Assembly (NCBI GenBank): GCA_016181305.1
Contig: JACOZN010000010.1
Location: 66,814-130,813 of the forward strand
DNA length: 64,000 bases
Origin: Candidatus Woesearchaeota archaeon
GTDB taxonomy: Archaea > Nanobdellota > Nanobdellia > Woesearchaeales > GW2011-AR4
Reading direction: 5' to 3'
Each line of letters opens with the position of its first letter. Position 1 is the first letter of the stretch. The notes below the pieces were generated by a model, which made no database searches, had not been told where the DNA came from, and saw only the letters and a program-made list of their open reading frames with translations. The position numbers and the translations under genes are program-made. Shown in pieces: positions 5,297 through 56,903 of this stretch.

Positions 5297-5309
5297 AATA
5301 ATTGGTTAA

Positions 5310-23536: not shown

Positions 23537-23549
23537 TTTAATTGAGGCT

Positions 23550-24926
23550 TTATTCCATATAGCCCAGCTCTCTCAGCAGCTTTTTTGATTTATCATCCAT
23601 GCTTGACAAGTCAGCATCACCTTCATTGCTTTGCTGCTTTAAAAAATCCAGCATCTTTTGTTTCATTTCAGATGCAACTTCTTTTTCTTTATTTATCAGA
23701 TTATTTGTCTCATTGGGGTCGTCCTTTAGGTTGTAAAGCTCAAAAATATCGTTTTGTGGGTGCGGAATGTAGATGAGTTTCCAGTCTCCTATTATCATCG
23801 TACGCCATTTTCCCCTTATTCCCGGGAAGAATATTCTCTTATGCCCCTTGAAATGCTCTTCAAGGCTCTCGGCAAAGACAAACTCCCTGCCTTTTAGGGT
23901 TTCTCCCTTAATTAAAGGCAGCAGGCTCATGCCGTCCACCCTGTCAATCAAAGGCACGTTGAGCATGTCCATTATCGTGGGCATTATGTCGATGTTCTGC
24001 ACTCTTTGCTTTATAATCTTGCCCTTTGGAACCAGTTTTGGATGCCTGAATATTAAAGGTATCCTCAAGCTCGGCTCATAGAGGCTTGCAGCATGCTGGA
24101 AGTAAAAATCATGCTCGCCGAAATTCTCGCCATGGTCCGATGTAAGAATGACTAAAGTTTCATCTTCAAGCCCAGTCTCCTTTAACGTGTCCAGGATTCT
24201 GCCAATCTGGGTGTCAACATATTTTATAGCTCCGTCATAATGCGCTATTGCATGCTCCATCTCCTCTTTTGGAAACTTGACATGCCCGAACAAGATGTCG
24301 CCTCTTGCCAGTTTCCCATCGGCTAATGTGTTGAAGTCGTGGCTGCCTTTATAGCCGGAATCAAACATATGTTCATAGGGCTTTGGAGGCCAGTAAGGCC
24401 AGTGCAGGTCTATGGGATGGTGGCATAAAAAGAATTTTTCATTGGAGTGCTTTTTTATCCACCTTATCGCTATTTGAGTATGCTGCTCAGTCAGGCCAAG
24501 AAAATTCTTGGGATTTAATATTTTATAAATGCCCCTTTTGATTTTGTTTTCAATTTTCCACGTGAGCGGATTGAACTCCTGAAACCCTTTTTTCATGGCT
24601 GGCTCGCTCAGAACGTCTACATCAAGGTATGCATTCCTGAAGCCGTGGCTTTGAAGTATTTCAGGCAATGTTGTTACAGACTCATTGAACTTGTTGTTGG
24701 AGACAAGCCTTATGCCATGGTTATGCGGATAGACTCCTGTGAATGCGGACAATATGGATGAATTTGTCCATGGAAAAGGGCAATACGCGTTCGAGAAGCT
24801 CGTGCCTTCTTTTGCCAGCCTGTCTATGTTCGGGCTTGTAGCCCTTGCATAGCCGTTTGCGCTTAAATGGTCAGGGCGCAGTGCATCCACTATAAACATG
24901 ATTATGTTCATTTTGCCTAAGGGCAT
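23550..24926 (-). CDS. Sulfatase-fold (alkaline-phosphatase superfamily) protein, non-canonical active-site motif
   Basis: 'IIMFIVDALRPDHLSANGY', 'PWTNSSILSAFTGVYP' and 'LTSDHGENFGEHDFYFQH'. The track start at 24932 is GTG, and the first ATG is 24926. Confidence 0.7.
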   Translation of the reverse strand: MPLGKMNIIMFIVDALRPDHLSANGYARATSPNIDRLAKEGTSFSNAYCPFPWTNSSILSAFTGVYPHNHGIRLVSNNKFNESVTTLPEILQSHGFRNAYLDVDVLSEPAMKKGFQEFNPLTWKIENKIKRGIYKILNPKNFLGLTEQHTQIAIRWIKKHSNEKFFLCHHPIDLHWPYWPPKPYEHMFDSGYKGSHDFNTLADGKLARGDILFGHVKFPKEEMEHAIAHYDGAIKYVDTQIGRILDTLKETGLEDETLVILTSDHGENFGEHDFYFQHAASLYEPSLRIPLIFRHPKLVPKGKIIKQRVQNIDIMPTIMDMLNVPLIDRVDGMSLLPLIKGETLKGREFVFAESLEEHFKGHKRIFFPGIRGKWRTMIIGDWKLIYIPHPQNDIFELYNLKDDPNETNNLINKEKEVASEMKQKMLDFLKQQSNEGDADLSSMDDKSKKLLRELGYME

Positions 24927-24962
24927 ATTCACTAGTTTAAAAATCTATATTAAGCATGCAAA

Positions 24963-25826
24963 TCAGCCGGTTCTGCGATTCTTTAATGCCGCCAATACTT
25001 TATAGGGAACTTTAAGTTTTCCGAGAACCTGCCCTTCCCTTCCGTGAAAGTCAGAGCCGCCTGTCTCGAGAAGCCTGTATTTTCCGGCTATATTCCGGAA
25101 CTTTTTGTTGATTTTGCTGCTTTGCGCAAAGCCTGTGTGGTATCTTGAGCTTTCATAATTGTAGTATGTCTCCAGCCCGTCTCCGCCGTTTTTTATAAAG
25201 TATTTTATGAATTCTTCAATGCTGAAATTGCTGTACACGCCGGGATGAGATATTAAAGCAAAGCCTTTTGCAGAGTGTATTGCATTTATCGCCTGCTTTA
25301 TGCCTATCTTGTTTTTTCTCTCAGCATAAGCCTTTTTGCCCACTGCAAGGTACTTATCAAAAATCTTATCTATAGAGTTTACTTTATCGGGGTTGTTCTT
25401 TAGGATTGCTTTGGCAATATGCGGCCTTCCTATCTCGCCTTTTGCGAGTTTCTTGACTTCTTGGTACGTGATTTTGAAGCCCAGTTTTTGGAATTTTTTA
25501 ATTATGTCTTTTTTTTGGCTTTCCCTGTATTGCTGGGCTTTTCTCAACAGGGAATTTAAGGATTTGTTTTTATGGTTGATAAACAATCCGAGAATATGTG
25601 TATCCACAAATCCTTTGTCATCGCAGCTTATCTCAACACCCGGAATAACCTCTATGCCTTTTCCCTTGGCGGCGCTTAAAGCCTCGTCTATGCCGCCTAC
25701 AGAGTCATGGTCTGTTATTGCTATTGCTTTCAGCTTTTTCCTCAAAGCCAGCCTGACAAGCCCTTTCGGGGTTAATGCCCCGTCAGAAGCTGTTGTGTGG
25801 CACTGGAGGTCTATGTTTTTTGGCAT
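24963..25826 (-). CDS. PHP-domain metal-dependent phosphoesterase
   Basis: 'IDLQCHTTASDGALTP', 'AIAITDHDSVGG', 'ISHPG' and 'GGSDFHG'. The track start at 25862 is TTG and overlaps proS. ATG 25826 leaves a 19-nt gap. Confidence 0.75.
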   Translation of the reverse strand: MPKNIDLQCHTTASDGALTPKGLVRLALRKKLKAIAITDHDSVGGIDEALSAAKGKGIEVIPGVEISCDDKGFVDTHILGLFINHKNKSLNSLLRKAQQYRESQKKDIIKKFQKLGFKITYQEVKKLAKGEIGRPHIAKAILKNNPDKVNSIDKIFDKYLAVGKKAYAERKNKIGIKQAINAIHSAKGFALISHPGVYSNFSIEEFIKYFIKNGGDGLETYYNYESSRYHTGFAQSSKINKKFRNIAGKYRLLETGGSDFHGREGQVLGKLKVPYKVLAALKNRRTG

Positions 25827-25845
25827 TTTTATTTTTGATATTATT

Positions 25846-27222
25846 TTAATAAGCCGGCGCAAATACAGCCGAGTAAGCTGCTTTTTTGCCGCAATGCACG
25901 CATTTGCCTGACTTTATCGGACGAACAACCCTAACTGAATTTTTGTTTGCCTTTTCCCTTATCTGCTTTGCGCAGCCTATACTGCCGCACCATAATGCCT
26001 CTATAAACCCTTTCTTTCCGGAAGCAATTTTCTCAAATTCCTGCCATGAGCCTACTTTTGAGATATGGCTGCTGTGGAATTCTTTGGCTTTCCTGCAGAG
26101 GTTGTCCTGAATTGAATTTAATGTTTTTTGTATTTCTTTTAATAATAAATTTTTACTTGTCTTGGTTTTTTCCAATGTGTCCCTTCTAATTAATGTAAAG
26201 TTATTTTTTTCAGATAAAACTATGATCGGGGCGCCCATCAAAATCCAATAGCCAATTTTTTCATTATTGCTTTTTTTTGACTCATCATTAAAAACCCTGA
26301 TTCCATTATTTTTTAATAAATCAAACATTTTTTCATTGAAATCCGCAAAAACAACTTGATAAGGCGCGATTTTCGGCGGAATTACCAGCCCTTTGTTGTC
26401 GCCATGAAGCATGGCTAATGCCCCGATAACCCTCGTTGTTATCCCGTTGCAGGCTTGATAGGCAAACTCGCCTTTTCCGCTTTTATTCCTGAATTTTATG
26501 CTGAATGCCTTGCTGAAATTCTGCCCTAGATAATGCGATGTTGCAGTCTGGACTGACTTGAAGTCAGGCATCAGCGATTCAAGGGCAAGCGTGTATTCAG
26601 CGCCCGGGAACATCCTATGCTCCGGCTTAAAGCCGCTTATTACCGGCATTGCAAGGCAATTTTCATGCAAATCCCTGTAGACATCCAGTATCTTCCTGAC
26701 ATATTCGTCTGCCTCTTTTTTTGTGGAATGGACTGAATGGCTTTCCTGCCACAGGAACTCGTTGCCTCTCAATAAAGGCATATTCGGCTTGAACGACTCC
26801 CATCTCATCACAGAGCAGTATTGGTTTATGCACAGAGGAAGATGCTTTTCCTCCTTGACCCATTTTGCTAGGGATTCATAGATTATTGCCTCTGAGGTTG
26901 GCCTTATCACATATTCCTCCTCAAGAGTGCTGTGCCCTGCCTTGGACACAACAAGAACTTCCCTGAAGAAATCCTCAAAGTGCTTTGTCTGCTTCTTGAA
27001 GGACTTCAATGGAATGAGCGCAGGGAAGTAATATTCTTTAAATCCCAACGGCATTAATTTATTGTCTAAATAGCTCTTTATCAGGCTCCATATCATAAGG
27101 CAGTATTCATGATAAACGACGCAGCCTTTCACTGCAGAAAAATCAACAAGCTTGGAAGCTTCTATAACTTCATGGTACCACTTCACAAAGTCTTCTTCCT
27201 TATTGGTTTTGACAGAAATCAT
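25846..27222 (-). CDS. proS: Prolyl-tRNA synthetase, archaeal/eukaryal type
   Basis: N-terminal 'DFVKWYHEVIEASKLVDFSAVKGCVVY', class II core blocks, and a C-terminal Cys-containing domain ending in '...CVHCGKKAAYSAVFAPAY' (terminal Tyr is typical of this type). Confidence 0.85.
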   Translation of the reverse strand: MISVKTNKEEDFVKWYHEVIEASKLVDFSAVKGCVVYHEYCLMIWSLIKSYLDNKLMPLGFKEYYFPALIPLKSFKKQTKHFEDFFREVLVVSKAGHSTLEEEYVIRPTSEAIIYESLAKWVKEEKHLPLCINQYCSVMRWESFKPNMPLLRGNEFLWQESHSVHSTKKEADEYVRKILDVYRDLHENCLAMPVISGFKPEHRMFPGAEYTLALESLMPDFKSVQTATSHYLGQNFSKAFSIKFRNKSGKGEFAYQACNGITTRVIGALAMLHGDNKGLVIPPKIAPYQVVFADFNEKMFDLLKNNGIRVFNDESKKSNNEKIGYWILMGAPIIVLSEKNNFTLIRRDTLEKTKTSKNLLLKEIQKTLNSIQDNLCRKAKEFHSSHISKVGSWQEFEKIASGKKGFIEALWCGSIGCAKQIREKANKNSVRVVRPIKSGKCVHCGKKAAYSAVFAPAY

Positions 27223-44498: not shown

Positions 44499-45935
44499 AT
44501 GAACGGAGTAAAAAACATAGCAATAAACACTGCCAGCCTGATAATATCAGAGGTAATCACAAAGATCGTGCAGTTCCTGATATTTGTGTTCATTGCCCGC
44601 TCTTTGGGCAGCGTTGTATTTGGAAAGTTCAATTTTGCCTATTCTTTTTCCATGATTGCCGTGCTCCTTATGGACTTGGGCATAAACTACATGCTGGTAA
44701 GAAACATGGCAAAAAACAAGAAGCTCGCAGGCGATTACATAATTAACTCCTTTGCGATAAAAATCATATTGTCGGCCATATCCTTCGCGGCAATATACTT
44801 TATTTTCAGCATGTCAAACTATCCTGAAGACACCAGAATGATAGTTTATATATTGGTGCTGTTTGCATTTTTGAGGTCTTTCACAGAGCTTGTATTTTCC
44901 GTGTTCAAGGCTTATGAAGCAATGCATTACGAGGCCTTCCTGAAAATTCTGAGGATGATTGCCACGCTTATATTTGGGCTTGCGGCGCTCAAGATACGCA
45001 AGGACATTGTGCTTTTGGCCATAATCTTCCTGCTTGTTGAGGGCGCAGTTTTCATCATAAGCCTTGTGATTGCCTTGTCTAAGTTCCTGAAGCTTAAGCT
45101 TTCCCTGAGCTTCGGTTTTTCCAGAGAAATCCTAAAAGAGGCTTTCCCATTCAGCCTTTCGTTTGTATTCGCCAGCGTATATTTCTACATTGGCAGCGTA
45201 ATGCTTTCTGCAATGAAAGGCGACAGCGCAGTCGGGATATACAGCGCGGCATACAACCTTACTTTAGCTATTCTTTTCATTCCAGGAATGTACACATTTG
45301 CCATCTACCCCGTCATTTCAAAAAACTTCGGCAAATTCAGGGACAGGGTAGTGCTGATATACGAAAAATCATTCAAATATATGTACATAATCGGGCTTCC
45401 GATAAGCATTGGATTTTTCATGCTCGCAGAAAAAATCATATTATTTTTTTATGGAAGAGAGTTTGCAGAGTCAGTGCTTGTGCTAAAGCTTGTATCATGG
45501 TTTGTTTTCATAAAGTTCATAAGCTTCATTACAGGCATAATATTGTCTGTGCAGATACAAAGGCTAAGGGCATTTGCACAGGGTGTCACCGCAGTGCTGA
45601 ACCTTGCGCTTAACTTTTTGCTGATACCAAAATACAGCTACATTGGGGCTGCGGTTGCAACGTTAATAAGCGAAACGGCGCTGTTTGCGCTTACTTTGAT
45701 GTTTGTTTCAAAATATTTCCATGTTTTTGACATATTGAAATTATTGCACAAGCCGCTGCTAGCATCTGCAATCATGGCGGCATTTATTATTTATCTAAAT
45801 ATAAACCTGTTTGCAGTCATGGCAGTCGGGGCAATAGTATATTTTGCGGCATTATTTTTGCTGAAAACATTTGATGAAAGGGACTATTCCCTGATGAAGA
45901 GCCTGGTAAAAATCGACAATGGGCAAGAATATTAG
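44499..45935 (+). CDS. Wzx-like oligosaccharide/polysaccharide flippase (MOP superfamily), second copy
   Basis: 478 aa with about 12-14 hydrophobic segments. The N-terminus 'IAINTASLIISEVITKIVQFLIFVFIARSLG' is typical of Polysacc_synt proteins. Confidence 0.7.
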   Translation: MNGVKNIAINTASLIISEVITKIVQFLIFVFIARSLGSVVFGKFNFAYSFSMIAVLLMDLGINYMLVRNMAKNKKLAGDYIINSFAIKIILSAISFAAIYFIFSMSNYPEDTRMIVYILVLFAFLRSFTELVFSVFKAYEAMHYEAFLKILRMIATLIFGLAALKIRKDIVLLAIIFLLVEGAVFIISLVIALSKFLKLKLSLSFGFSREILKEAFPFSLSFVFASVYFYIGSVMLSAMKGDSAVGIYSAAYNLTLAILFIPGMYTFAIYPVISKNFGKFRDRVVLIYEKSFKYMYIIGLPISIGFFMLAEKIILFFYGREFAESVLVLKLVSWFVFIKFISFITGIILSVQIQRLRAFAQGVTAVLNLALNFLLIPKYSYIGAAVATLISETALFALTLMFVSKYFHVFDILKLLHKPLLASAIMAAFIIYLNINLFAVMAVGAIVYFAALFLLKTFDERDYSLMKSLVKIDNGQEY

Positions 45936-47172
45936 ACTATGGGCGGAAAACGGGAATTCAATTCTTGAGGGAATAAGAAACAGGAGCGTGGAAAGCCATG
46001 TTGCTGCTGATTTTCTGCAGAAGGAACTGCATGAGGCAGTTTACTCGTATGTAAACGGCGGGTTTTCGAAAGCAGGGTATATCCTGTACCCATTTGTAAA
46101 AGGCCTTTCAAAGGATATTTTCAACAAGCTAAGCGATGTTAAGGCCGCAGCTGAATTTCTGGATGAATCAGGCTGCGATTTCAGCAATTCCCTGAGCCTG
46201 TACAGGAATACGAAATTGAGCGGGAAGAGCGCGCCGGTTTTTATATCGAAGCTTTACCAGGATTTCTCAGAGATTGAAAAATCAGGAGTGAAAAATAAGA
46301 AAGTCAGATTCAAGAAAATTGATATCAAAGATTACGACAAGAGGGATTCTGAATACCTAAAGCCTGTAATTGGGCTCAAGGACTTTGCAAATGACAGCTT
46401 AAGGGATTTTGCTGTTGATATGCATATACACGGCAGCATAGCCACCAGAGACTATGTAAAGGGCTGGAGCGACCTTGACACGCTTATTATAATAAAAAAT
46501 GGCGTTATAAACGACCCAGAACTGCTGGCTGAGCTGAGGAATACCCTTTACAAATCAAAAAAATATTTTTATTTGGTTGACCCTCTGCAGCACCACGGGC
46601 ATATGGCTGTAACAGAATATGACATGGAATATTACTGCCAGTCATTCTTTCCGCTTGTCTTGTTTGATTATTCAAAATCGGTTTTTGGCAGCAAATACCT
46701 GAATTTCGGCGTAAGGGACGACAAAGCTGAAAGGATGGAAAGATTTCGTGTATTTTCAGGCTATTTTAAAAGCCTTTATTCAGGCAGGATAAAAAGAATG
46801 GGCTGCTACGAGCTTAAATTCCTGCTGCACATGATTTCCCTTTTCCCGACAATGTACCTCCAGGCAAAAGGCATGCACGTCTACAAGAAGTTCTCATTCG
46901 GGATAGCCAAAAGGGATTTCAGCAAAAGCGAATGGAATCCAATAGAAGCAGCGACAGGCATAAGGAGCAGGTGGAAAGCGCCGGCAAAAATGCCTTTCAC
47001 AGCAATGGCTTCGCGCATAAATCCGTTGCTGGCTTACCAGGCAAATGCAAAATACTGGGACATGACAAATAATATCAATAACCTGAACAGGGTGAATGTC
47101 CAAAGCCTTGTAAATGGAATGCACATATTGTCTGAAAAAGCAAAAGCTAGGATAGAGGGCTTTTTTAAATAG
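45919..47172 (+). CDS. Hypothetical protein with a Pol-beta-fold nucleotidyltransferase core
   Basis: 'DMHIHGSIATRDYVKGWSDLDTLIIIKNG' fits the hG[GS]-x9-13-DhD minimal NTase pattern. It overlaps the flippase stop by 17 nt. Confidence 0.5.
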   Translation: MGKNIRLWAENGNSILEGIRNRSVESHVAADFLQKELHEAVYSYVNGGFSKAGYILYPFVKGLSKDIFNKLSDVKAAAEFLDESGCDFSNSLSLYRNTKLSGKSAPVFISKLYQDFSEIEKSGVKNKKVRFKKIDIKDYDKRDSEYLKPVIGLKDFANDSLRDFAVDMHIHGSIATRDYVKGWSDLDTLIIIKNGVINDPELLAELRNTLYKSKKYFYLVDPLQHHGHMAVTEYDMEYYCQSFFPLVLFDYSKSVFGSKYLNFGVRDDKAERMERFRVFSGYFKSLYSGRIKRMGCYELKFLLHMISLFPTMYLQAKGMHVYKKFSFGIAKRDFSKSEWNPIEAATGIRSRWKAPAKMPFTAMASRINPLLAYQANAKYWDMTNNINNLNRVNVQSLVNGMHILSEKAKARIEGFFK

Positions 47173-48385
47173 ATTCTATACCAACATTCTTTAATGTACT
47201 TCTTATGTAAAAAAGCGCCCTCCTGAACAGGGAATTGCTCGTTATTATGACGTACAGCAAAATCATCTTGTTTTTCAGGCCCTTTTCTGTCTTGTACCCT
47301 AGTGGGAAAAAGCATGGAAAGTGGGAATGCTTAAGGCTGTTTGCCAATTCGACCTGCTCATTAAGATTTATTATTCTCTTCTCCAGAACCTGGTCCAATT
47401 TTTCCTGAAAGCAATTTATGCTGAGCCTCCTTCTGATGTACCTGCTCAGCCTTCCCTTGGCGCTTGAATAGCAGCAAAGCTGCTTCAGAAGGCTTATCGG
47501 GAGTATTGAGTAGAAATTCTTGTGCTTAATGAAATGGCTTATCATCCGGGATATGGCCTTATCAGGGTGCCACTCAGCTGTAAATGATATCCTTGCCTTG
47601 TAGCCCCTAAACAGCACATCACGCTGCTTCGCATGCAGCAGGCTGTTTTTATCCCTGGACAAGAATGCGTCAAATTCCTTTACAAAGTCTGATGATATGT
47701 AAACTGACTCTTTCAGCAGGCCAAGAAGCATGTCTTTTCTGATGTTGTCATCCATATCAAACCAGTTTTTCCTTATATGGCTTATTTTTTCAGAGAATTT
47801 TTTCCATTCAGGCTTTTTGACGCCCGATATGTCATGAAACATTCTGAAGGTATGGCTTATGGCGTTAAGCCTAAGCAGGCACATCCTTATGTTGATTTTT
47901 TTTGACAGAAGTATGTAAAGAAAGTCCACAGGAAAATGCCTTAATGTGGTGTCTGTGACAAGATACTTCTTGATTTTTTTAATTTCTGTATCTTTTGGCT
48001 TGTAAATCTCTATTTCTTTGCCGTATATTTTTATGTAGTCCGAGCTCGGATATATGTACCTTATGTTCTTGAATATATTCTCGGTAAAAATCAGGAAGGG
48101 GTGGAAAACAAGGTATTTTGAATCATCGTCTATGTAGTTTTTCTTCAGGAGGGGCGGCAATTTAGAGCCTTCTTTAAGCACAAATATCAGGTCGATGTCC
48201 GATATTCCAGGGGCGCTTACCTTGCCGAATCCATAAACCGACAGAATCCGGTGCTCTTTTTGCACCTTCTTTTTTATCCTTCCAAGCACCCTGCCGTAAT
48301 CTTCCAGCCTGTACTTTACAGGGTGTCCGTAAAAAGAAAGCTCTTCTTTTTTTAGATTTCTGATGTAATTATTTTTTATTTCCAT
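47165..48385 (-). CDS. Hypothetical protein with a Pol-beta-fold nucleotidyltransferase core (distant paralog of 45919..47172)
   Basis: 'LSVYGFGKVSAPGISDIDLIFVLKEG' fits the same G-x-DxD pattern. The gene is convergent, and its 3' end overlaps the partner gene by 8 nt. Confidence 0.5.
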   Translation of the reverse strand: MEIKNNYIRNLKKEELSFYGHPVKYRLEDYGRVLGRIKKKVQKEHRILSVYGFGKVSAPGISDIDLIFVLKEGSKLPPLLKKNYIDDDSKYLVFHPFLIFTENIFKNIRYIYPSSDYIKIYGKEIEIYKPKDTEIKKIKKYLVTDTTLRHFPVDFLYILLSKKINIRMCLLRLNAISHTFRMFHDISGVKKPEWKKFSEKISHIRKNWFDMDDNIRKDMLLGLLKESVYISSDFVKEFDAFLSRDKNSLLHAKQRDVLFRGYKARISFTAEWHPDKAISRMISHFIKHKNFYSILPISLLKQLCCYSSAKGRLSRYIRRRLSINCFQEKLDQVLEKRIINLNEQVELANSLKHSHFPCFFPLGYKTEKGLKNKMILLYVIITSNSLFRRALFYIRSTLKNVGIESI

Positions 48386-48398
48386 GCGGCCAAGAATC

Positions 48399-49202
48399 CT
48401 ACCTGAACCTTATTGGGTTTCTCTTTTTCATCTCCGTGTACAGATAATCAAACTCCTCTTTGCTTATTTTTTTGGTGTTGATTTTTTCCATTACCATCCC
48501 AAAATCATGATTTCCCGAGCCGATCCTGAAATAGTCAATAACCTTAAAGCCGATAAACTGGAAGAATGTCTCGTAAAGGCTGCTGATGTAAGCGCCGTGG
48601 CAGTGTATGCTGTAGCCGTGCTTTTTTGTCAGATTGGACATCACTGCATACAATTCCATGCTCCGGTAGACATTAGAATGGGCATCGTCCTCGATGCCCG
48701 AGTTGTCATGCAGAAGGCTGTCAGAGAATGTTATGTCAAACTCCTTGTTTGCTTTTGAGCTGAAATTCTGCAGGTCAAGGCTGCCGGAATTCTCCTTCAC
48801 AGGAAGGGCTGAAGCCTCGGCGCCAAGCTTTTTGAGGAAATCCAGATGCTCTCTCTTTGAATCGTTAGGCGCCAGCTCCAAAACAGATATTCCTGACATT
48901 GCGCCTGCGGTAATAAGCGCTTTTTTTAACTCGTTGACTTTTAAATCCTCCATCTCAAATATCTTTTTTGAGAGGTTGAACTCCACAAACGGCTCTATAA
49001 CGCTGAAAAATCCGCCTAAGTCGTTTTTAACAAGGAAGGAGCAGTTTATCGTGAGGAACAGCAGAGGGTCGTAGCCTGAATCCAAAATGCGCGGAAATTT
49101 GCCCTTTTCAAACAGGGCAATTCCGTTGCCAGTGTTCTCATAGAATATCTGCACCTTGCTGCTTATGCTGTCATCAATACCGCTTTCAATCCTTACTTCC
49201 AT
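48399..49202 (-). CDS. Hypothetical protein; the C-terminal half is vaguely class-I-methyltransferase-like without an obvious Gly-rich SAM loop
   Basis: 'ISVLELAPND', 'FDITFSDSLLHD' and 'LTKKHGYSIH'. The track start at 49280 is TTG, and the first ATG is 49202. Confidence 0.4.
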   Translation of the reverse strand: MEVRIESGIDDSISSKVQIFYENTGNGIALFEKGKFPRILDSGYDPLLFLTINCSFLVKNDLGGFFSVIEPFVEFNLSKKIFEMEDLKVNELKKALITAGAMSGISVLELAPNDSKREHLDFLKKLGAEASALPVKENSGSLDLQNFSSKANKEFDITFSDSLLHDNSGIEDDAHSNVYRSMELYAVMSNLTKKHGYSIHCHGAYISSLYETFFQFIGFKVIDYFRIGSGNHDFGMVMEKINTKKISKEEFDYLYTEMKKRNPIRFR

Positions 49203-49305
49203 AAAACAGGGTGCGGCAACTCGGTTTATAAAGCTTTTCTTGACTCGCTGCGTAATAAACTGCCATAATAAAAAAGGCAAAAGAGGCCATATTTGCCGAT
49301 TATGC

Positions 49306-50850
49306 TTATGCTGCGCTGATGAAATTCTTCAGCTTTATCTTGCTATCCATGCTCAGGCTGTTATAGATTCTGAGCTTGATGTGCTCCGGCAGAGTGTAAA
49401 GATACGTCAAAAACAGCGGAAAATTCCTGTATTTTTCAAAGAATTTTATAGCCGAGTCTTTCAGCAGGAGTTTTACCAGGAATTTTGGTATTTTGCCGCT
49501 CTTCCATCCCTTATGGGTGCCCGAAATCCAGAAAATGAGATTGTTGAGGTATATGTTGGTTGCTTTCTTCACATGGTAATTCACGTTGAAATAGTCTGCA
49601 GTGTAGCCGGCATCCTCCTCCTGCTTGATAACGCCGTCTTCCTTTGCCTTGTTGTACAGCGCAATGCCCGGGAAAAAAACAAGATTGTAGGAGTCAAGCC
49701 TGAAAGGCTCGGGCAGGCTCATTGCCAAATCTATTGTCTGGAGCAGGTCGTTCCTCTCCTCGTAGGGGTTTGAGTATATGAGCTCGTATCTTGGCATCAG
49801 CCTGTCCCTGAATTTATTGACAACCTGCGCTGCTTTCAGGATATCTTCCCTGAATATCGGCCTGTTGTAGTACTCAAGGGTTCTTCTGCTGCCGGACTGC
49901 ACGCCTATCAGAATTTCCTTCAGGCCGGCGTCAACAAGCAGCCCCAGCTTGTCCTCGACAATGTGCTTGGCAATCCCATAGCACCTGAAAGGGAGATTGA
50001 TGTGCTTTTTGTACAATTCGTTGAAAAGTGCCAAGTCTTCTCTGGTTCTCATTACAAGGCAGTCGTCAGTGAACCAGATTTTATTCATTGACGGCAGGTT
50101 CTTCTTTATCTCGAGAAGCTCTTTTATGACATAGGGTATGCTTTTTTTCCTGACTATCCTGAACTTGCCCGAGTACAGCTCATTGAACGTGTGGTTGCTG
50201 CAAAAGGAGCATGTGTAAGGGCAGCCGCGCTGAGTGTAGACAAGGACAAGGTTTTCCTTGTATTTCTCGAAAAAATAATCTTCCTTCATCTTAACAAGCT
50301 TGCCCTCGACAAGTATGTGCTCATCATCAAGGTTGTAGTCCGGAATGGGCAGTGCATCCAGGTCATTATTCAGCGGCCTCAGCTCATTTTTTATTACAAC
50401 ACCATTTTTCCTCAGCCACAGGTTTTTAATGTCTGAAACATCCTGATTTTTTTCAATCCTCTGGACGAATTCAAGCACGGCAAGCTCGCTTTCCCCCCTG
50501 AAAACATAGTCGACTGACTCGATGCACTTGTCGGGATTCATTGTGGGGTAGGCGCCTCCCCAAAGCAGTATCTTGCCTTTAAGCACATTGAACAGCTGCT
50601 TTGCCCTTTCGGCAGTAAGCGCCATCGAGGTAACGCCGACAATATCAGAGTCTTTTGTCAGCTCCTTAACCTGCTCAATAACCCTTTCAGAGTATACTGC
50701 AGAAGAAAGTATGTTGCCGTCTGTTATTTCATTGCTTGTCGTAAGAAAAATCATCCTGACTCTATGCCCGTGGCTTTTCAGGAGAGAAGATATCGACCTT
50801 AATCCATGATGTGCTACATCATTGTCAACGCTTATGAGGGTTATATTCAT
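49306..50850 (-). CDS. B12-binding-domain radical SAM enzyme (class B-like)
   Basis: An N-terminal Rossmann-like B12-type domain plus 'RGCPYTCSFCSN' (CxxxCxxC). The track start at 50859 is GTG. ATG 50850 is preceded by GAGGTGG. Confidence 0.8.
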   Translation of the reverse strand: MNITLISVDNDVAHHGLRSISSLLKSHGHRVRMIFLTTSNEITDGNILSSAVYSERVIEQVKELTKDSDIVGVTSMALTAERAKQLFNVLKGKILLWGGAYPTMNPDKCIESVDYVFRGESELAVLEFVQRIEKNQDVSDIKNLWLRKNGVVIKNELRPLNNDLDALPIPDYNLDDEHILVEGKLVKMKEDYFFEKYKENLVLVYTQRGCPYTCSFCSNHTFNELYSGKFRIVRKKSIPYVIKELLEIKKNLPSMNKIWFTDDCLVMRTREDLALFNELYKKHINLPFRCYGIAKHIVEDKLGLLVDAGLKEILIGVQSGSRRTLEYYNRPIFREDILKAAQVVNKFRDRLMPRYELIYSNPYEERNDLLQTIDLAMSLPEPFRLDSYNLVFFPGIALYNKAKEDGVIKQEEDAGYTADYFNVNYHVKKATNIYLNNLIFWISGTHKGWKSGKIPKFLVKLLLKDSAIKFFEKYRNFPLFLTYLYTLPEHIKLRIYNSLSMDSKIKLKNFISAA

Positions 50851-50855
50851 CCAAG

Positions 50856-50862
50856 CCACCTC
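50856..50862 (-). promoter_or_regulatory. Shine-Dalgarno GAGGTGG for the 49306..50850 gene
   Basis: The minus strand reads AAAGAGGTGGCTTGGATG, with 5 nt of spacing to the ATG. Confidence 0.4.
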
Positions 50863-50940
50863 TTTAAACTCATTCTGGAAATATATTGATTATTGTTTAT
50901 AATACTTTTCCTTTTTATACTGCCGGTAATTCGTCCCAGT

Positions 50941-52365
50941 TCAAAAAATGCCAAGCCTGTCAACTATCTTTTCACCATAAGATCTTATAAAGTTGTAGCG
51001 CGACAATTTCCATGCAAGATACCCAAGCGGCTTGCCCAGCATGTTCTGGAGCGTCCATTTCTCGGCTTCACTTGTGCATATCCTGTAAGCCTTTACCCTT
51101 TCTTCTTTCGGGAAGTCGTCTGTTTCGTATACTATCCCCATATCCTCGGCTTCTGTCTTGAGCGTTCCAAGCGTTTGCGATGCTTTTGTATGTGATGTTT
51201 CTATGTCCATCACAGGCTTTGCATTCTTCTTTGCCCACTCATACAGCTCTGTCTGCGGCATTGGAACTGCATGGCTGTACCTTGGCATGTCAATTCCTGT
51301 CCTTTTGAAAAACTCTATGCTGTCCAGCTCTTTTTTGAATGTAGAGCCGGGCAATCCTATTATAAAGAACCCCTTGACTTTTATCCCGGCTTCCTTGCAG
51401 ATTTTTATTGCATTTTCTATTGTTGATATGCGAGACGGCTTCTTTATGTTTGCCAATACATCGTCATGGACAGACTCTATGCCTATTGACACCATTGTGC
51501 ATCCTGACTCCCTCATCTTAACCATCATGTCCTTGTTGACAGAGTTGGCTGTCAGCCCCTGCCCGACAACCCACCTGATTTTCAGCTTTCTTTTTATTAT
51601 ATCGTCACAAATCCCTATAACCCTGTCCTTGAACAGCCCTATATTGTCATCCATAACCTGAAAATTGTCAATGCCAAGCCTTTTGTTGGCATATTCAATC
51701 TCATCAACTACATTCTTCGGGGACCTGTACCTGTATTTAACGAAAATTGAGGGTATAGTGCAAAAGATGCATTTGTGCGGGCAGCCCCTTGCTGTCATAA
51801 TTGGCAGCTGTATTCTTTTTGGGTTTTTGTTATAGTCCCTAAGGTTGAAAAGGTGCCATGCAGGGAAAGGTATGTCATCAAGATTTTCAGGTAATTCCCT
51901 TGGGTTTATGGTTATTTTCCCTTCTTCCTTGTAGCCCAGCCCGGGGATGCTTTTCCAATCCTCGTTTTTTTCATATTTTTCAAGGAATTTCGGAAGAACA
52001 AAGTCGCCTTCACCAACCACAACAAAGTCAACATCAGATTTGGGCAGTATGGACTCTGACAATGTCGTGACTTCGGGGCCGCCGGCAATTACTATGGCTT
52101 TTGGATTTTGCGATTTCACCTTTTTCATGATTTCAAATGCGTGCTCCAAAGTCAGCGAAGCCAGGCTGATGCACAGCACATCAGGATTAAACTCCTCCAA
52201 TACAGAGTTAAAATTTTTTTCAACTTTTCTGACCCTTAAATCCAGGATGGCTACCTTATGCCCTGCTTTCTCAAGAGCAGCGGCCAGGTAAGCCTGCGCA
52301 AGCAAAGGCCTTTTTGGAGCATAATTCTCCATTGAGTCTTTTGGCTGTATAAGTAGGACTTTCAT
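50941..52365 (-). CDS. B12-binding-domain radical SAM enzyme (class B-like)
   Basis: 'MKVLLIQPK...AYLAAALEKAGHKVAILD' is the B12-type N-domain and 'RGCPHKCIFCT' is the CxxxCxxC motif. Confidence 0.8.
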   Translation of the reverse strand: MKVLLIQPKDSMENYAPKRPLLAQAYLAAALEKAGHKVAILDLRVRKVEKNFNSVLEEFNPDVLCISLASLTLEHAFEIMKKVKSQNPKAIVIAGGPEVTTLSESILPKSDVDFVVVGEGDFVLPKFLEKYEKNEDWKSIPGLGYKEEGKITINPRELPENLDDIPFPAWHLFNLRDYNKNPKRIQLPIMTARGCPHKCIFCTIPSIFVKYRYRSPKNVVDEIEYANKRLGIDNFQVMDDNIGLFKDRVIGICDDIIKRKLKIRWVVGQGLTANSVNKDMMVKMRESGCTMVSIGIESVHDDVLANIKKPSRISTIENAIKICKEAGIKVKGFFIIGLPGSTFKKELDSIEFFKRTGIDMPRYSHAVPMPQTELYEWAKKNAKPVMDIETSHTKASQTLGTLKTEAEDMGIVYETDDFPKEERVKAYRICTSEAEKWTLQNMLGKPLGYLAWKLSRYNFIRSYGEKIVDRLGIF

Positions 52366-52377
52366 AAAGGCTTAGTC

Positions 52378-52386
52378 ATACTGCAT
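52378..52386 (-). repeat. ATGCAGTAT box (minus-strand copy), immediately downstream of the TATA box of the 52365 gene
   Basis: The plus strand reads atactgcat. It is the inverted partner of 52471-52479. Confidence 0.45.
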
Positions 52387-52387
52387 G

Positions 52388-52395
52388 GTATAAAA
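52388..52395 (-). promoter_or_regulatory. TATA box (minus-strand TTTTATAC)
   Basis: It lies 23 nt upstream of ATG 52365. Confidence 0.5.
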
Positions 52396-52457
52396 GTTTT
52401 TCTGTTATTTGGGCATATAAGATTCGTGCAATATGCGCTGTTAAAATCACAGAAAAG

Positions 52458-52467
52458 TTTATATAAA
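52458..52467 (+). promoter_or_regulatory. TATA box TTTATATAAA
   Basis: It ends 32 nt upstream of ATG 52499. Confidence 0.45.
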
Positions 52468-52470
52468 GAA

Positions 52471-52479
52471 ATGCAGTAT
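52471..52479 (+). repeat. ATGCAGTAT box (plus-strand copy) downstream of the TATA box of the 52499 gene
   Basis: Read directly from the sequence. It is the inverted partner of 52378-52386. Confidence 0.45.
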
Positions 52480-52498
52480 TAACAATTGTGAAGATTTC

Positions 52499-53902
52499 AT
52501 GAAAGTATTGCTTGTATTGCCTCCGAATATCGGCAGGTACATAGTAGCCACTATTCCGCATGCAGGAATAGCGTATCTTGCGGCTTTTCTGGAAAGGGAT
52601 GGGCATAAGGTTGAAGTGCATGACATGAGGATTGATGCTGACGACAAGCACCTTGCAAGCAAAATCGAGAGCTTCAAGCCTGAGCTTATAGGTGTTTCTT
52701 CAGCGAGCATAGGCTATAAGATGGCTTACGAAATAATCAACTCCATTAAAAGAAGGTATCCAAATATACCTGTGGCAATGGGCGGCTCTTACGCATCCAC
52801 AGTGCATACAAAAATTCTCGAAGATACAAAGGCTGATTATACTGTGTACGGCGAAGGGGAGATGACTTTCCTGGACCTTGCTAATGGCACGGAGCCAGAC
52901 AAAATAAAAGGGCTTATATGGCGCAATAATGATGAGGTTGTAATGAATCCCCCATATCCTCCGGTAAAGGATCTGGACAGCATGCCATTCCCAAAATTCG
53001 AGAAATTCCAGCTTGACAAGATGCTTGAGAAAAGAATTCCCATAGTAAGCTCGAGAGGGTGCCCAAACAGATGCACTTTTTGCTCAATCCAGCTTGTCAT
53101 GGGCTATCCGTTCAGGTCAAGGAGCCCTGAAAATGTGCTGGAAGAGATAAAATACTGGCATAATAAAGGTTATGACACATTTGAGTTCAGCGATGACAAC
53201 TTCACATTCAACATGCCAAGGGCTGAAAAGATATGTGACTTGATAATTGAAAGCGGAATGAAGCTAAAGCTGATTTTTGGCAACGGGTTAAGGGCTGACA
53301 GGGTCAATGAAAACCTGCTTCGAAAATTAAAGGCTGCAGGCTGCATCTGGATAGGGTACGGGCTGGAGACATCAGACCTGCACAGCCTTGAACTGCTAAA
53401 AAAGGACCTTGACTTAAACCAGCTGAAATGGGCTGTGCAGGAGACAAAAAAGCTTGGCATAAGCGTGCAGGTTCATTTCATAATCGGAACACCGGGCTCT
53501 ACATTTGACACTTTTATGAGGGACATAAAATTCGCCGACAGCCTTGATCTTCATCAGGTAAGATTCTTTAACATGGTGCCTTATCCAGGAACTGAGATGT
53601 ATGAGTGGGTAAAACAAAACGGAAGGTTTTTGCACAAGCCGGATGACTACCTTAACAATCTTGATTACTGGGGAGAGGAGCCTGTCTTTGAAACTGAAGA
53701 CTTTACACGTGATGAAAGGATAAAGGCATTCCGCATTGGGCAGGACAAGGTTATGGAGCTGCATTTGAGAAGGCATTTCGGCAAAAATATTGGCAAGCTG
53801 GGCTACAAACTCTATAAAAACAGGCTTGTAAAAAAGTACGGCATGAATGCTGCAACAAAGGCATGGATTATGCTTAAAAGATTAAGGATAAAGCAACAAT
53901 GA
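52499..53902 (+). CDS. B12-binding-domain radical SAM enzyme (class B-like)
   Basis: 'MKVLLVLPP...AYLAAFLERDGHKVEVHD' is the B12-type N-domain and 'RGCPNRCTFCS' is the CxxxCxxC motif. It is a clear paralog of 50941..52365. Confidence 0.8.
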   Translation: MKVLLVLPPNIGRYIVATIPHAGIAYLAAFLERDGHKVEVHDMRIDADDKHLASKIESFKPELIGVSSASIGYKMAYEIINSIKRRYPNIPVAMGGSYASTVHTKILEDTKADYTVYGEGEMTFLDLANGTEPDKIKGLIWRNNDEVVMNPPYPPVKDLDSMPFPKFEKFQLDKMLEKRIPIVSSRGCPNRCTFCSIQLVMGYPFRSRSPENVLEEIKYWHNKGYDTFEFSDDNFTFNMPRAEKICDLIIESGMKLKLIFGNGLRADRVNENLLRKLKAAGCIWIGYGLETSDLHSLELLKKDLDLNQLKWAVQETKKLGISVQVHFIIGTPGSTFDTFMRDIKFADSLDLHQVRFFNMVPYPGTEMYEWVKQNGRFLHKPDDYLNNLDYWGEEPVFETEDFTRDERIKAFRIGQDKVMELHLRRHFGKNIGKLGYKLYKNRLVKKYGMNAATKAWIMLKRLRIKQQ

Positions 53903-53914
53903 GCATTTTGTAGT

Positions 53915-54841
53915 TTACTTCTTAAAAAACTCTATTGTTTCGGCCAAACCTTCCCTTAGCCCGATTTTAGGCTGCCATTTAAGCTCTTTTTTTGCTTTTG
54001 CTATGTCCGGGCACCTTACATGGGGGTCGTCTTTAGGCAGTGGCTTGAAGATAATTTTGCTGCTGCTTTTTGTCAATGCCTTTATCAGTTCAGCAAACTC
54101 AAGTATTGTATGCTCTTCGGGATTGCCGAGATTGACAGGCTCGTTTAAGCCTGAAATCATCAGCCTGTATATGCCGTCTATCAAATCAGTTACGTAGCAA
54201 AAGCTTCTTGTCTGGGCGCCGTCTCCATAGACGGTTATTGGCTTGCCGTTCAGCGCCTGTGTTATAAAATTAGGGACAACTCTTCCGTCATCTTTCCTCA
54301 TTCTTGGGCCATAGGTGTTGAATATTCTCACTATCTTCGTGTCAAGCCCGTGTATCCGATGGTAAGCCATTGCCAGCGCCTCTGAGAATCTCTTTGCCTC
54401 GTCATAGCAGCCCCTCACGCCGATAGGATTTACATTGCCCCAGTAGCTTTCGGGCTGCGGATTGACTAATGGGTCGCCGTAAACTTCGGATGTTGATGCA
54501 AGCATGTACTTTGCCTTTTTTGCCAATGCCAAGCCAAGAGTGTTATGGGTGCCGAGGCTGCCAACCTTCAGGGTTTGTATCGGTATTTTCTGGTAATCGG
54601 CAGGGCTTGCTGGGCTGGCAAAATGAAGCACATAATCCACTTCCCCGTTAACGGCTATGTGCTTGCTTACATCATGGTGAATGTACGTAAAATTGCTGTT
54701 TCCCCTCATATGCTCTATGTTTTTCAAGCCGCCTGTTACAAGGTTGTCCATGGCTATGACTTTGTACCCTTTGCCCAAAAGAAGCTCGCACAAATGGCTT
54801 CCGATAAACCCAGCTCCGCCTGTAACCAATGCTGTTTTCAT
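53915..54841 (-). CDS. UDP-glucuronate decarboxylase (UDP-xylose synthase, UXS-type SDR)
   Basis: '[15 protein letters not shown]', '[12 protein letters not shown]', '[27 protein letters not shown]' and '[13 protein letters not shown]' closely match the UXS consensus. Confidence 0.85.
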
Positions 54842-54847
54842 TTCAGT

Positions 54848-55579
54848 TTATTCCCTGTAATGCCTGTCTGCTTTCTTCAGCTGCTCAATGCTTCCTATGT
54901 CATACCACTTCTTGTCAGTCACGTATGAGTGCACAATGTCTCTCTTGTGCAGCCATTCTATAAAACTGCCGGTCTTGTCAGGGTTGTTGCCCTGTGCAAT
55001 GTATTTGCTTATTAACTGTATTGTTTTTTTCGGGAAAATGTATATCCCTGTGGATGCAAGCGTGGATTTCGGAGAGAGCGGCTTTTCCTCAAAATTCACA
55101 ACAACGCTGCCGTCAATTTCGACAATGCCATAATGCCTTGCCAGCTCAAAGTCCTTAACGTCGTGAAGCACTATGACATTCGACTTTCTCTTCCTAAAAA
55201 AATTGAAAACATCAGCCAGCGACAGCTCAAAAAGGTTGTCGCCCGCCACTATTATTATGTCATCTTTAATATCCTTTGAATTTATTGTGTAATATACGTC
55301 ACCCAAGGCTCCCAGCCTGTCCTCGTTGCTCTTGGTTCCGTCATTTACAATTTCAATGGGCTTTTCAGAGCCGAAGCCCTGAAGCCATTTTTTGAAATGC
55401 TGCTCGAACTTGCTGTTTGTAACTATGTAGATTTTGCCGATGGACGCAATCTGCTCCAGTTTCCTTATTATGTGCGCTATTATTGGCTTGCCTGCCACGC
55501 TCAGCAGCGGCTTCGGCATGTTTTCCGTCAATGGATACAGCCTTGTTGCATAGCCTGCAGCCAGTATTATCGCATCCAT
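54848..55579 (-). CDS. Sugar-1-phosphate nucleotidyltransferase (glucose-1-phosphate uridylyl/thymidylyltransferase-like)
   Basis: 'MDAIILAAGYATRLYPLTENMPKPLL' is the G-x-G-T-R-L signature. Confidence 0.8.
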   Translation of the reverse strand: MDAIILAAGYATRLYPLTENMPKPLLSVAGKPIIAHIIRKLEQIASIGKIYIVTNSKFEQHFKKWLQGFGSEKPIEIVNDGTKSNEDRLGALGDVYYTINSKDIKDDIIIVAGDNLFELSLADVFNFFRKRKSNVIVLHDVKDFELARHYGIVEIDGSVVVNFEEKPLSPKSTLASTGIYIFPKKTIQLISKYIAQGNNPDKTGSFIEWLHKRDIVHSYVTDKKWYDIGSIEQLKKADRHYRE

Positions 55580-56881
55580 TTACAGCACTTCCTTTCTTCC
55601 TATGCTTATGTAGACAAAGCCTTCCTTCCTCATCTCTTCAGGATTGTAAATGTTTCTTCCGTCTATAATCAGGGGATGCTTCATTAGCGGCTTTATCCTC
55701 TTCAAGTCCAGCTCCTTAAACTCTTTCCATTCCGTAAGGATTACCAATGCGTCAGAGCCTGCTGCAGCCTCATATGGGCTGTTGCAGTAAGTTATTCCAT
55801 TGAAAATCTGCCCTGCCTTCTGCATTGCCTCTGGATCATAAGCTTTTATTTTTGCACCTTCTTTCTGCAGCTGGGATATGATGTCTATTGAAGGCGCCAG
55901 CCTCATATCGTCTGTATTTGGCTTGAAAGCCAGCCCCAGAACGCCGATTGTCTTGCCCTTGACAACCCACAATGCCTTTTCTATCTTTTTCATGAAATTA
56001 TCCCTTTGGGCATTGTTGATTTCCTGGACTGCCTTAAGCAGCCTGAAATCATAGCCAAACTTCTCAGCTATCCTGACAAATGCATCAACATCTTTCGGAA
56101 AGCAGGAGCCTCCGTAGCCTATCCCGGCATTCAGAAAAGACCTGCCTATCCTCTTGTCAAAGCCCATCCCTTCAGAAACCTTCTCAATATCAGCGCCTGC
56201 CAGCTCGCAGATGTTTGCGATAGCATTGATGAATGATATCTTTGCAGCTAAAAATGAGTTCGAGGCGTGCTTTATGATCTCGGCGCTTTTTATGTCCGTA
56301 AAAATAATAGGGGCGTTTAAAGGGGAATACAGCTCTTTCATCACATTTCTTGACCTTTCATTTTCGCATCCTATGACTACCCGGTCAGGGTGCATGAAAT
56401 CGTTAACAGCGCTGCCTTCCCTCAGGAACTCCGGGTTGCTGACAACATCAAAATCCGCCTTATGCACATTATACGCCCTTATGGTCCTTGCAACCTTTTC
56501 CCCGGTTTCGACAGGGACTGTGCTCTTCTCGACAATAACCTTGTACGAGTCCATCGCCTCTGCTATTGCCCTTGCAACGTTCTCAACATAGCTCAGGTCA
56601 GCCTCACCGTTTTCCTTTGGGGGGGTGCCGACGCATATAAAAACCACACCGCATTCTTTGATGGACTTTTTCAGGTCGGATGTGAATTCCAGCCTGCCGG
56701 CTTTTTTGTTATTTGCAACAAGCCCGTCCAAGCCGGGCTCGTATATCGGTATTATGCCCTTGTTCAGGCTTTTTATCTTTTCCTCGTCTATGTCGACGCA
56801 AACAACCTCGTTGCCCAAGTCGGCAAGGCACGTGCCTGTAACCAGGCCCACGTAGCCCGTCCCCACAACTGCAATTTTCAT
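55580..56881 (-). CDS. ugd: UDP-glucose (or UDP-N-acetylhexosamine) 6-dehydrogenase
   Basis: 'MKIAVVGTGYVGLVTGTCLA' and 'GYGGSCFPKDV' (catalytic Cys). The track start at 56893 is TTG, and ATG 56881 sits 23 nt downstream of a TATA box. Confidence 0.85.
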   Translation of the reverse strand: MKIAVVGTGYVGLVTGTCLADLGNEVVCVDIDEEKIKSLNKGIIPIYEPGLDGLVANNKKAGRLEFTSDLKKSIKECGVVFICVGTPPKENGEADLSYVENVARAIAEAMDSYKVIVEKSTVPVETGEKVARTIRAYNVHKADFDVVSNPEFLREGSAVNDFMHPDRVVIGCENERSRNVMKELYSPLNAPIIFTDIKSAEIIKHASNSFLAAKISFINAIANICELAGADIEKVSEGMGFDKRIGRSFLNAGIGYGGSCFPKDVDAFVRIAEKFGYDFRLLKAVQEINNAQRDNFMKKIEKALWVVKGKTIGVLGLAFKPNTDDMRLAPSIDIISQLQKEGAKIKAYDPEAMQKAGQIFNGITYCNSPYEAAAGSDALVILTEWKEFKELDLKRIKPLMKHPLIIDGRNIYNPEEMRKEGFVYISIGRKEVL

Positions 56882-56903
56882 AGGCTTTTGCAAAGCAAAG
56901 CAG

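Follow-up and report, generated by a model that had tools for sequence, protein, structure and literature searches.

Putative cobalamin-dependent radical SAM enzymes in a glycan gene island of a probable DPANN archaeon

Introduction

More than 80,000 sequences are assigned to the class B radical S-adenosylmethionine (SAM) enzymes; they fall into over 100 network groups, the largest of which are unexplored (PMC12931638). Most of the characterized members are methylases, and each network group with a characterized member includes C-methyltransferases (PMC12931638). Among the closest described systems, QCMT (PDB entry 9CCB), the MCR glutamine C-methyltransferase, acts on an sp3 carbon, GenK and MoeK5 are likewise listed as Csp3 methyltransferases (PMC12931638), and GenD1 methylates C-4'' of gentamicin A (PMC4340712). 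The 2026 review of the class names sugar-modifying enzymes, though the words glycan, polysaccharide, and sugar are absent from it (PMC12931638), and the papers on archaeal N-glycosylation that our search retrieved make no mention of radical SAM enzymes. Here, we analyze a 64-kb stretch of DNA, hereafter called the window, and within it the region 48399-53902, whose four open reading frames (ORFs) include three class B genes that we name rSAM1, rSAM2, and rSAM3.

Nearly all named homologs of the three proteins are from Woesearchaeota, Nanoarchaeota, or Pacearchaeota, and an archaeal FEN1 is encoded in the window (NCBIfam). The region is present in groundwater metagenomes, the runs listed being DNA only and coming from groundwater and soil. 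The host is probably a groundwater DPANN archaeon. We propose, with somewhat less than even confidence, that rSAM1, rSAM2, and rSAM3 are cytoplasmic class B enzymes that tailor the sugars of a surface glycan, most likely by C-methylation.

Results

Three class B genes outside the characterized families

rSAM1 (P0001) lies at 49306-50859 on the minus strand and codes for 517 amino acids (aa), rSAM2 (P0002) at 50941-52365 on the minus strand (474 aa), and rSAM3 (P0003) at 52499-53902 on the plus strand (467 aa). For rSAM1, the probable start is the ATG at 50850, which has a TATA-like box upstream; the GTG at 50859 is less likely. The original prediction had described all three as B12-type radical SAM genes, and profile searches bore this out, with the B12-binding domain PF02310 (gathering score 32.1) and the Radical_SAM domain PF04055 (gathering score 29.5) reaching 43.7 and 55.3 bits in rSAM1, 72.4 and 85.0 bits in rSAM2, and 77.6 and 75.3 bits in rSAM3. 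The cluster motifs quoted in that prediction are present and intact: CPYTCSFC, CPHKCIFC, and CPNRCTFC, respectively. In profile alignments with PDB sequences, the N-terminal domain of rSAM3 matches the B12 domain of TsrM and the N-terminal domains of CysS, OxsB, and QCMT; it also aligns with the cobalamin domain of TokK, beyond the radical SAM core. With a B12-binding Rossmann domain joined to a radical SAM domain that carries the CxxxCxxC motif, the three proteins are assigned to class B on their predicted domains, and they probably use cobalamin.

rSAM2 and rSAM3 are indeed a divergent paralog pair, as had been proposed: they are separated by a 133-bp spacer and share 34% identity over 466 aa (E 1e-86). 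rSAM1 is more distant, with only 22-23% identity to either protein. A recent inverted duplication as the origin of the pair is ruled out by the 34% identity, the assignment of the two genes to separate orthogroups, and the existence of orthologs elsewhere; the split between the paralogs appears to be ancient.

Comparison with curated NCBIfam models placed the three proteins outside the characterized families, as none of them reached a curated cut-off. The top matches were HpnJ for rSAM1 (99 bits; cut-off 578), BchE for rSAM2 (175 bits; cut-off 481), and ApyD and HpnJ for rSAM3 (166 bits; cut-offs 750 and 578). The class B equivalogs, namely, BchE, HpnJ, HpnR, PhpK/Sden_1168, QCMT, BzaD, ApyD, KedN5, TsrM-type, ladderane, and ArsL, all scored below their cut-offs of 360 to 750, and the AprD4-type diol dehydratase model NF033070 (cut-off 500) gave 31.2, 50.6, and 66.8 bits with rSAM1, rSAM2, and rSAM3, respectively. 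The scores of the housekeeping families MiaB/RimO/MtaB, HemW, Elp3, MnmL, and YgiQ were 15-49 bits, against cut-offs of 180-462, so the proteins do not fall into such families, membership in which the original prediction had named as a finding that would refute it.

Searches of PDB sequences gave 9CCB as the first match of rSAM2 (8e-20) and as the sole match of rSAM1 (2.4e-07). With the single sequence of rSAM3, CysS came first and 9CCB second, and a profile built from 12 rSAM3 homologs retrieved 9CCB as its first match (E 8.2e-33), then AprD4, which aligned on the radical SAM core only, and after it CysS, OxsB, TokK, and TsrM. The three proteins make up a new uncharacterized set of subfamilies and not a new kind of enzyme, class B genes of unassigned function being very common.

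rSAM3 belongs to a conserved module

We mapped the surroundings of the genes by tblastn on the neighborhoods of close homologs and on 60 metagenome loci retrieved via NT406, one of the neighboring proteins. rSAM3 is part of a block that consists of a Wzx-type flippase gene, the genes of two putative nucleotidyltransferase (NTase) proteins designated NT417 and NT406, a 267-aa orphan ORF, and rSAM3 itself. This block recurs in a Woesearchaeota metagenome-assembled genome (L005) and in at least 11 metagenome loci, and in these relatives rSAM3 is usually followed by genes for UDP-glucuronate decarboxylase (UXS), a sugar-1-phosphate nucleotidyltransferase, and UDP-glucose 6-dehydrogenase (Ugd). Every related block with enough flanking sequence has an rSAM3 ortholog, 69-98% identical to that of the window, the value of 98% being that of L094 and L095, two contigs near-identical to the window. 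Even in L116, where NT406 is just 21% identical, a class B gene still follows Wzx, NT417, and NT406 in this order.

The genes of the module differ in how fast they drift. Across the block loci, identities are 69-84% for rSAM3, 77-84% for UXS, and 65-77% for Ugd, as against 34-66% for the 267-aa protein, 34-65% for NT406, 43-56% for NT417, and 45-71% for Wzx. As judged from these values, rSAM3 is the conserved core of the module, evolving like a nucleotide-sugar enzyme and unlike the glycan-specific genes. Its conservation at the level of nucleotide-sugar enzymes hints that its substrate is probably small and conserved.

The original prediction had regarded the three class B genes as one cluster. 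All three are present, and they lie among glycan genes, but they do not form one unit, as rSAM3 is the core gene and rSAM1 and rSAM2 vary between strains. The segment from the 267-aa gene to rSAM3 is a variable slot, which is empty in L005, L096, L097, L099, L100, L103, and L106-L108, holds rSAM1 alone in L093, L098, and L101, and is occupied by both rSAM1 and rSAM2 solely in the window and in L094 and L095, the two contigs near-identical to it. Clustering distinguished four class B orthogroups in these islands, with 14 members for rSAM3, 6 for a 495-aa type, 6 for rSAM1, and 4 for rSAM2. Orthologs of rSAM1 that are 80-96% identical occur at differing positions in L088, L093, L095, L098, and L101, and those of rSAM2 (78-97% identical) in L090, L095, and L099, the copy in L099 being located on the far side of Wzx. 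In this comparison, rSAM1 and rSAM2 are accessory, strain-variable insertions, and the 267-aa ORF is the usual divergent partner of rSAM3.

Glycan genes surround the class B genes and their homologs

The window is largely a glycan island. It codes for two Wzx flippases, GT2, GT4, and PMT_2 transferases, DegT aminotransferases, several SDR enzymes, many SAM methyltransferases, three sulfatase-family proteins, a TagF-like protein, and an asparagine synthase. That the class B genes are embedded in a glycan context, as had been claimed, holds beyond the window, since glycosyltransferase or nucleotide-sugar genes were found in each neighborhood examined for homologs of the three proteins. Thus, in L006 a 49%-identical rSAM3 homolog is one of three class B genes among GT2, GT4, PMT_2, and carbamoyltransferase genes; rSAM2 homologs of 82% and 44% identity are found in clusters of glycosyltransferase, flippase, and carbamoyltransferase genes in L090 and L092, respectively; and rSAM1 homologs of 36-40% identity are found in heptose and glycosyltransferase clusters in L089, L155, and L156.

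We also tallied the neighbors of more distant homologs, using 30 genome contig loci among the matches listed for the rSAM3 profile, with homologs of 29-40% identity and two genes considered on each side. The 120 neighboring proteins included 19 radical SAM proteins (12 with a B12 domain), 10 GT2, 6 PMT_2, and 5 GT4 proteins, and 5 methyltransferases. Among the matches listed, glycan genes are therefore enriched around homologs at this distance in both bacteria and archaea and in many phyla.

One neighborhood, L088, has a distinct content. There, the 80%-identical rSAM1 ortholog lies directly upstream of genes for a cytidylyltransferase, a fusion of cytidylyltransferase and phosphoenolpyruvate (PEP) mutase, a thiamine pyrophosphate-dependent decarboxylase, an Fe-alcohol dehydrogenase, and a nucleotidyltransferase. 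By its predicted functions, this set is a 2-hydroxyethylphosphonate cassette, which recalls the Fom1/Fom2/FomC/Fom3 logic. The segment 3766-16485 of L088 holds three class B genes, two methyltransferase genes, two sulfatase-family genes, and the full cassette, with Wzx adjoining. It may be an archaeal phosphonoglycan locus, in which some steps could resemble those of Fom3 or PhpK. The window and L088 share the asparagine synthase, two sulfatase-family genes (53-67% identity), Wzx, and a small cytidylyltransferase module. A tblastn search of the 64 kb of the window found no PEP mutase, decarboxylase, or alcohol dehydrogenase of this kind.

Other genes of the islands are recorded here as separate observations. 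The three sulfatase/alkaline-phosphatase-family genes of the window and the gene of the TagF-like CDP-glycerol glycerophosphotransferase are located at 4127-7193 and 22415-24932. An ORF of more than 906 aa at 1-2718 on the minus strand, which runs past the start of the window, codes for a fusion of cytidylyltransferase-like and PPDK-like parts and scores 711 bits with NF004508 (PRK05849), against a cut-off of 501. Among the members of this family is the glutamine kinase that serves O-methyl phosphoramidate synthesis in Campylobacter jejuni. Elsewhere in the island, a PHP-domain protein (24963-25862, minus strand) resembles 3',5'-nucleoside bisphosphate phosphatases at 163 bits, under the cut-off of 400. 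Together with the NF004508 ORF, it might serve a phosphoramidate-type decoration of the glycan. Intein domains were detected in two of the relatives, one in an SDR epimerase/dehydratase of L088 (18846-20951; Pfam Intein_splicing) and one, with a weak Intein_splicing match, in a carbamoyltransferase of L090 (6949-9672); a faint LAGLIDADG match was seen among the two cases.

The partners of rSAM3 in the block

The left end of the block is the Wzx-type flippase gene (44499-45935, plus strand; Polysacc_synt, PF01943, 127.7 bits), which is syntenic in the relatives at 45-95% identity. To the right of rSAM3 and convergent with it is the UXS gene (53915-54841, minus strand), whose product matches human UXS1 over its full length (E 1.6e-109). 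It is followed by the sugar-1-phosphate nucleotidyltransferase gene (54848-55579, minus strand; PF00483, 133.8 bits), for which the top NCBIfam matches are archaeal GlmU N-domain/AglF-like models, all under cut-off, and by the Ugd gene (55580-56893, minus strand). Ugd has all three UDPG_MGDP_dh domains, matches TuaD and AglM, the former at 620 bits, and scores 507 with the NDP-sugar dehydrogenase subfamily model (cut-off 190). UXS, the nucleotidyltransferase, and Ugd give a route from glucose-1-phosphate to UDP-xylose (UDP-Xyl). The neighbors named in the original prediction, UXS, Ugd, and NTase-fold proteins, are thus as described, the NTase matches being weak.

These NTase-fold proteins are NT417 (45919-47172, plus strand; about 417 aa), with a weak Pol-beta NTase signature (PF01909, 17.1 bits; 28.2 bits in the L001 ortholog), and NT406 (47165-48385, minus strand), with an NTase fold that includes the motif GISDIDLIFV and a helical C-terminal part. 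NT406 and its orthologs had no Pfam match at E ≤ 5. Among 20 homologs of NT406, the invariant residues are G54, P59, G60, S62, D63, D65, and H95. The best Foldseek matches of its AlphaFold2 (AF2) model (pLDDT 88) were the aminoglycoside adenylyltransferases AAD(9) and AadA, both weak (E 2e-3, TMq 0.25). As these weak matches were all that Foldseek gave, a LicD/fukutin-type phosphotransferase is unsupported. Nor did the two proteins prove to be paralogs, their BLASTP similarity not being significant (E 0.23). The NT417 and NT406 genes are adjacent in about 25 loci (including L111-L127), many of them without a class B gene, and this adjacency persists at identities of 24-40% for NT417 and 21-28% for NT406, which suggests that the two proteins may form a two-subunit enzyme.

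The 267-aa protein (48399-49202, minus strand), usually the divergent neighbor of rSAM3 in relatives, is an orphan. Neither it nor its orthologs had a Pfam match, even at E ≤ 5, and the protein itself had no NCBIfam match. Its family is tiny: a search of 1.84 billion representative proteins found 21 relatives. Its C-terminal half recurs at the C terminus of unannotated proteins of 395-584 aa, and a Pfam search with these larger proteins gave no match. Foldseek assigned its AF2 model (pLDDT 86) to the class I methyltransferase fold, with 93 PDB matches at E ≤ 1e-3, those listed being overwhelmingly methyltransferases with bound SAM or S-adenosylhomocysteine. No GxGxG motif I is present in the window copy, which reads VLELAPNDSK at that place. 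The glycine-rich loop has been lost in the subfamily to which the window copy belongs, and distant members keep GxLGxxxG. The label of a degenerate methyltransferase-like ORF that had been attached to it is fair for a protein with a modeled methyltransferase fold and no glycine-rich loop.

The spacer between rSAM2 and rSAM3

The divergent promoter spacer between rSAM2 and rSAM3 (52366-52498, no strand assigned) contains mirror-image elements at 52378-52479, composed of a repeat and a 9-mer. A 22-nt inverted repeat, 82% complementary, spans both TATA boxes. The exact 9-mer ATGCAGTAT is found once on each coding strand of the spacer and has no other copy in the window. Because at least two matches to it arise in 11 of 100 shuffles, only its symmetric placement is notable. 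Rfam and tRNA scans of the window gave no match, including none to a cobalamin riboswitch.

Discussion

Proposed role of the class B enzymes

The three genes combine class B domains with a recurrent setting among glycan genes, and we favor a role of their products in tailoring sugars in the cytoplasm. In such a mechanism, the [4Fe-4S] cluster bound by the CxxxCxxC motif would cleave SAM reductively to give a 5'-deoxyadenosyl radical, which would abstract hydrogen from an unactivated sugar carbon. The resulting substrate radical would most likely take a methyl group from methylcobalamin, a second SAM would regenerate methylcobalamin, and the net product would be a C-methylated sugar. Before flipping by Wzx, rSAM3 would act on a sugar derived from UDP-glucuronic acid (UDP-GlcA) or UDP-Xyl, whether this sugar is still nucleotide bound or already part of the first lipid-linked units. 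rSAM1, rSAM2, and the fourth, 495-aa type would be accessory tailoring enzymes that come and go between strains and thereby generate glycan diversity. The methylation chemistry is proposed here from the enzyme class, and the use of cobalamin and the substrates are likewise proposals. The original prediction of C-methylated or otherwise radical-modified sugars therefore holds as far as the glycan context is concerned, which is real and recurrent; C-methylation or another radical sugar chemistry stays a matter of inference. Its alternative of a modified carrier lipid gained no specific support.

A more specific version of this proposal, which we regard as possible but on balance doubtful, is that rSAM3, the 267-aa protein, and NT417/NT406 form an undescribed cobalamin-dependent pathway in which UDP-GlcA or UDP-Xyl is turned into a pentose or uronic acid that is C-methylated or C-branched and destined for the surface glycan in DPANN archaea, with the strain-variable class B enzymes adding further changes at the carbon level. 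If so, the surface-glycan identity of these reduced-genome archaea would hinge on a supply of corrinoids from a host or the surrounding community.

Several points weigh against C-methylation of surface sugars. Since no curated cut-off was reached, no function can be transferred from a known family. Sequence features cannot tell methylating from non-methylating class B enzymes, and AprD4 and ArsL share the class B sequence network yet bind no cobalamin (PMC12931638); AprD4 is among the better PDB matches for the radical SAM core. Complete cobalamin pathways are rare in Woesearchaeota (PMC8421398). The SDR protein and the dehydrogenase beside rSAM3 in L103 are just 37% and 30% identical to UXS and Ugd, respectively, so the link to xylose is not strict. 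Finally, the module is shared among fairly close relatives, so that synteny by itself is modest evidence of functional coupling.

Alternative functions

The most credible alternative, a real but lesser possibility, is that the radical chemistry by which the enzymes tailor sugars is something other than methylation, such as dehydration or deoxygenation in the manner of AprD4, ring contraction in the manner of HpnJ or OxsB, epimerization, or oxidative cyclization in the manner of BchE, with cobalamin perhaps in another role or absent. It draws on the presence of HpnJ and BchE among the top NCBIfam matches of all three proteins and of AprD4 among the top PDB matches to the radical SAM cores of both rSAM2 and rSAM3, but all these family scores are far under cut-off, and AprD4 aligns on the core alone, whereas true cobalamin binders align over the N-terminal domain too. 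Ordinary SAM methyltransferases are already plentiful in the island, and the indistinguishability by sequence noted above applies here as well; on the other side, the characterized members of class B are mostly methylases (PMC12931638). Modification of a lipid, whether of a polyprenyl or dolichyl carrier or of scavenged membrane lipids, by GrsA/B-, HpnP/HpnR-, or ladderane-type chemistry, we consider unlikely. The HpnJ, HpnR, and TIGR04072 models that would suggest it are generic matches with scores far under cut-off. The C-terminal tails of the three proteins are basic and rich in aromatic residues and, as read from the sequence, could lie on a membrane surface, but the conserved block has no isoprenoid or lipid-synthesis gene, and its recurrent partners are nucleotide-sugar enzymes, glycosyltransferases, and flippases, a context that speaks against membership in the GrsA/B or Tes families.

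For rSAM1, at least, the L088 island raises the question of a phosphonate or phospho-head group as the substrate, in which case the enzyme would act like Fom3 or PhpK and methylate a nucleotide-activated 2-hydroxyethylphosphonate that is later put on the glycan. Its ortholog heads the cassette there, the window has the asparagine synthase, both sulfatase-family genes, Wzx, and the cytidylyltransferase module in common with that island, and Sden_1168 and PhpK, both models of P-methyltransferases, turn up as generic matches. However, the lack in the window of the PEP mutase, decarboxylase, and alcohol dehydrogenase genes led us to downgrade this idea; in L093, L098, L101, and the window, rSAM1 adjoins rSAM3 and not phosphonate genes, its 36-40% homologs in heptose/glycosyltransferase clusters have none of these three genes nearby, and the P-methyltransferase scores are far under cut-off. 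We deem it quite improbable. The chance presence in the island of housekeeping radical SAM genes, serving tRNA or rRNA modification or the synthesis of heme or a cofactor, would fit the generic source labels of the homologs, "YgiQ family" or "anaerobic Mg-protoporphyrin cyclase." The low scores with the housekeeping models and the differences in gene presence between close strains effectively refute it, and the context was glycan related in all neighborhoods examined, which leaves it a very slight probability.

Significance

The proposed tailoring of surface sugars by class B enzymes can be addressed in this locus as a compact test case, with a conserved core enzyme and the candidate substrates UDP-glucose, UDP-GlcA, and UDP-Xyl made next door, and the natural variants with zero, one, or two extra enzymes beside rSAM3 are built-in comparisons. 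If C-methylation is true, the antibiotic chemistry of GenD1, GenK, and MoeK5 extends to primary cell-surface glycans of archaea, and glycan diversity in DPANN archaea is tied to external vitamin B12. If the proteins are ordinary tailoring enzymes, their description still provides a useful annotation for a common class of "COG1032/YgiQ-like" genes now mislabeled BchE.

Comparison with known systems

QCMT (9CCB; TIGR04014) is the closest solved structure. It is archaeal like the proteins studied here, has about 450 aa, and joins an N-terminal cobalamin Rossmann domain to a radical SAM barrel. Nevertheless, the TIGR04014 scores of rSAM1, rSAM2, and rSAM3 are 40-130 bits, against a cut-off of 360, and QCMT has a protein substrate and belongs to methanogens, whereas the three proteins occur in a glycan context in a DPANN-like archaeon.

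HpnJ, the hopanoid sugar ring contraction enzyme, BchE, and AprD4 are among the top generic profile or PDB matches, and HpnJ and AprD4 act on sugar moieties. All their scores are nonetheless far under cut-off, and AprD4, an enzyme devoid of cobalamin, matches in the radical SAM core only. Fom3 of fosfomycin synthesis and PhpK act on phosphonates or phosphinates, and one rSAM1 ortholog, that of L088, adjoins a cassette whose cytidylyltransferase-PEP mutase fusion is Fom1-like; in contrast, the window has no phosphonate genes, and the scores with PhpK and Sden_1168 are 60-156 bits, where the cut-offs are 575-600. As to the 267-aa protein, the TylC3-type NDP-sugar C-methyltransferases MtmC and KijD1 are the top Foldseek matches of its model, with which they have the class I Rossmann methyltransferase fold in common. 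The TMq value reaches only 0.36, however, at 8-12% identity, and the window protein has neither the glycine-rich SAM loop nor a Pfam match.

GenD1 and GenK of gentamicin synthesis and MoeK5 of moenomycin synthesis, likened here by enzyme class, belong to class B and are the precedent for methylating unactivated sugar carbons. The ring methylated by GenD1 derives from xylose and the target of MoeK5 from a uronic acid, two sugars that this module can supply. Those enzymes serve bacterial secondary metabolism and are larger (GenD1, about 77 kDa), whereas the archaeal enzymes would act on a primary surface glycan.

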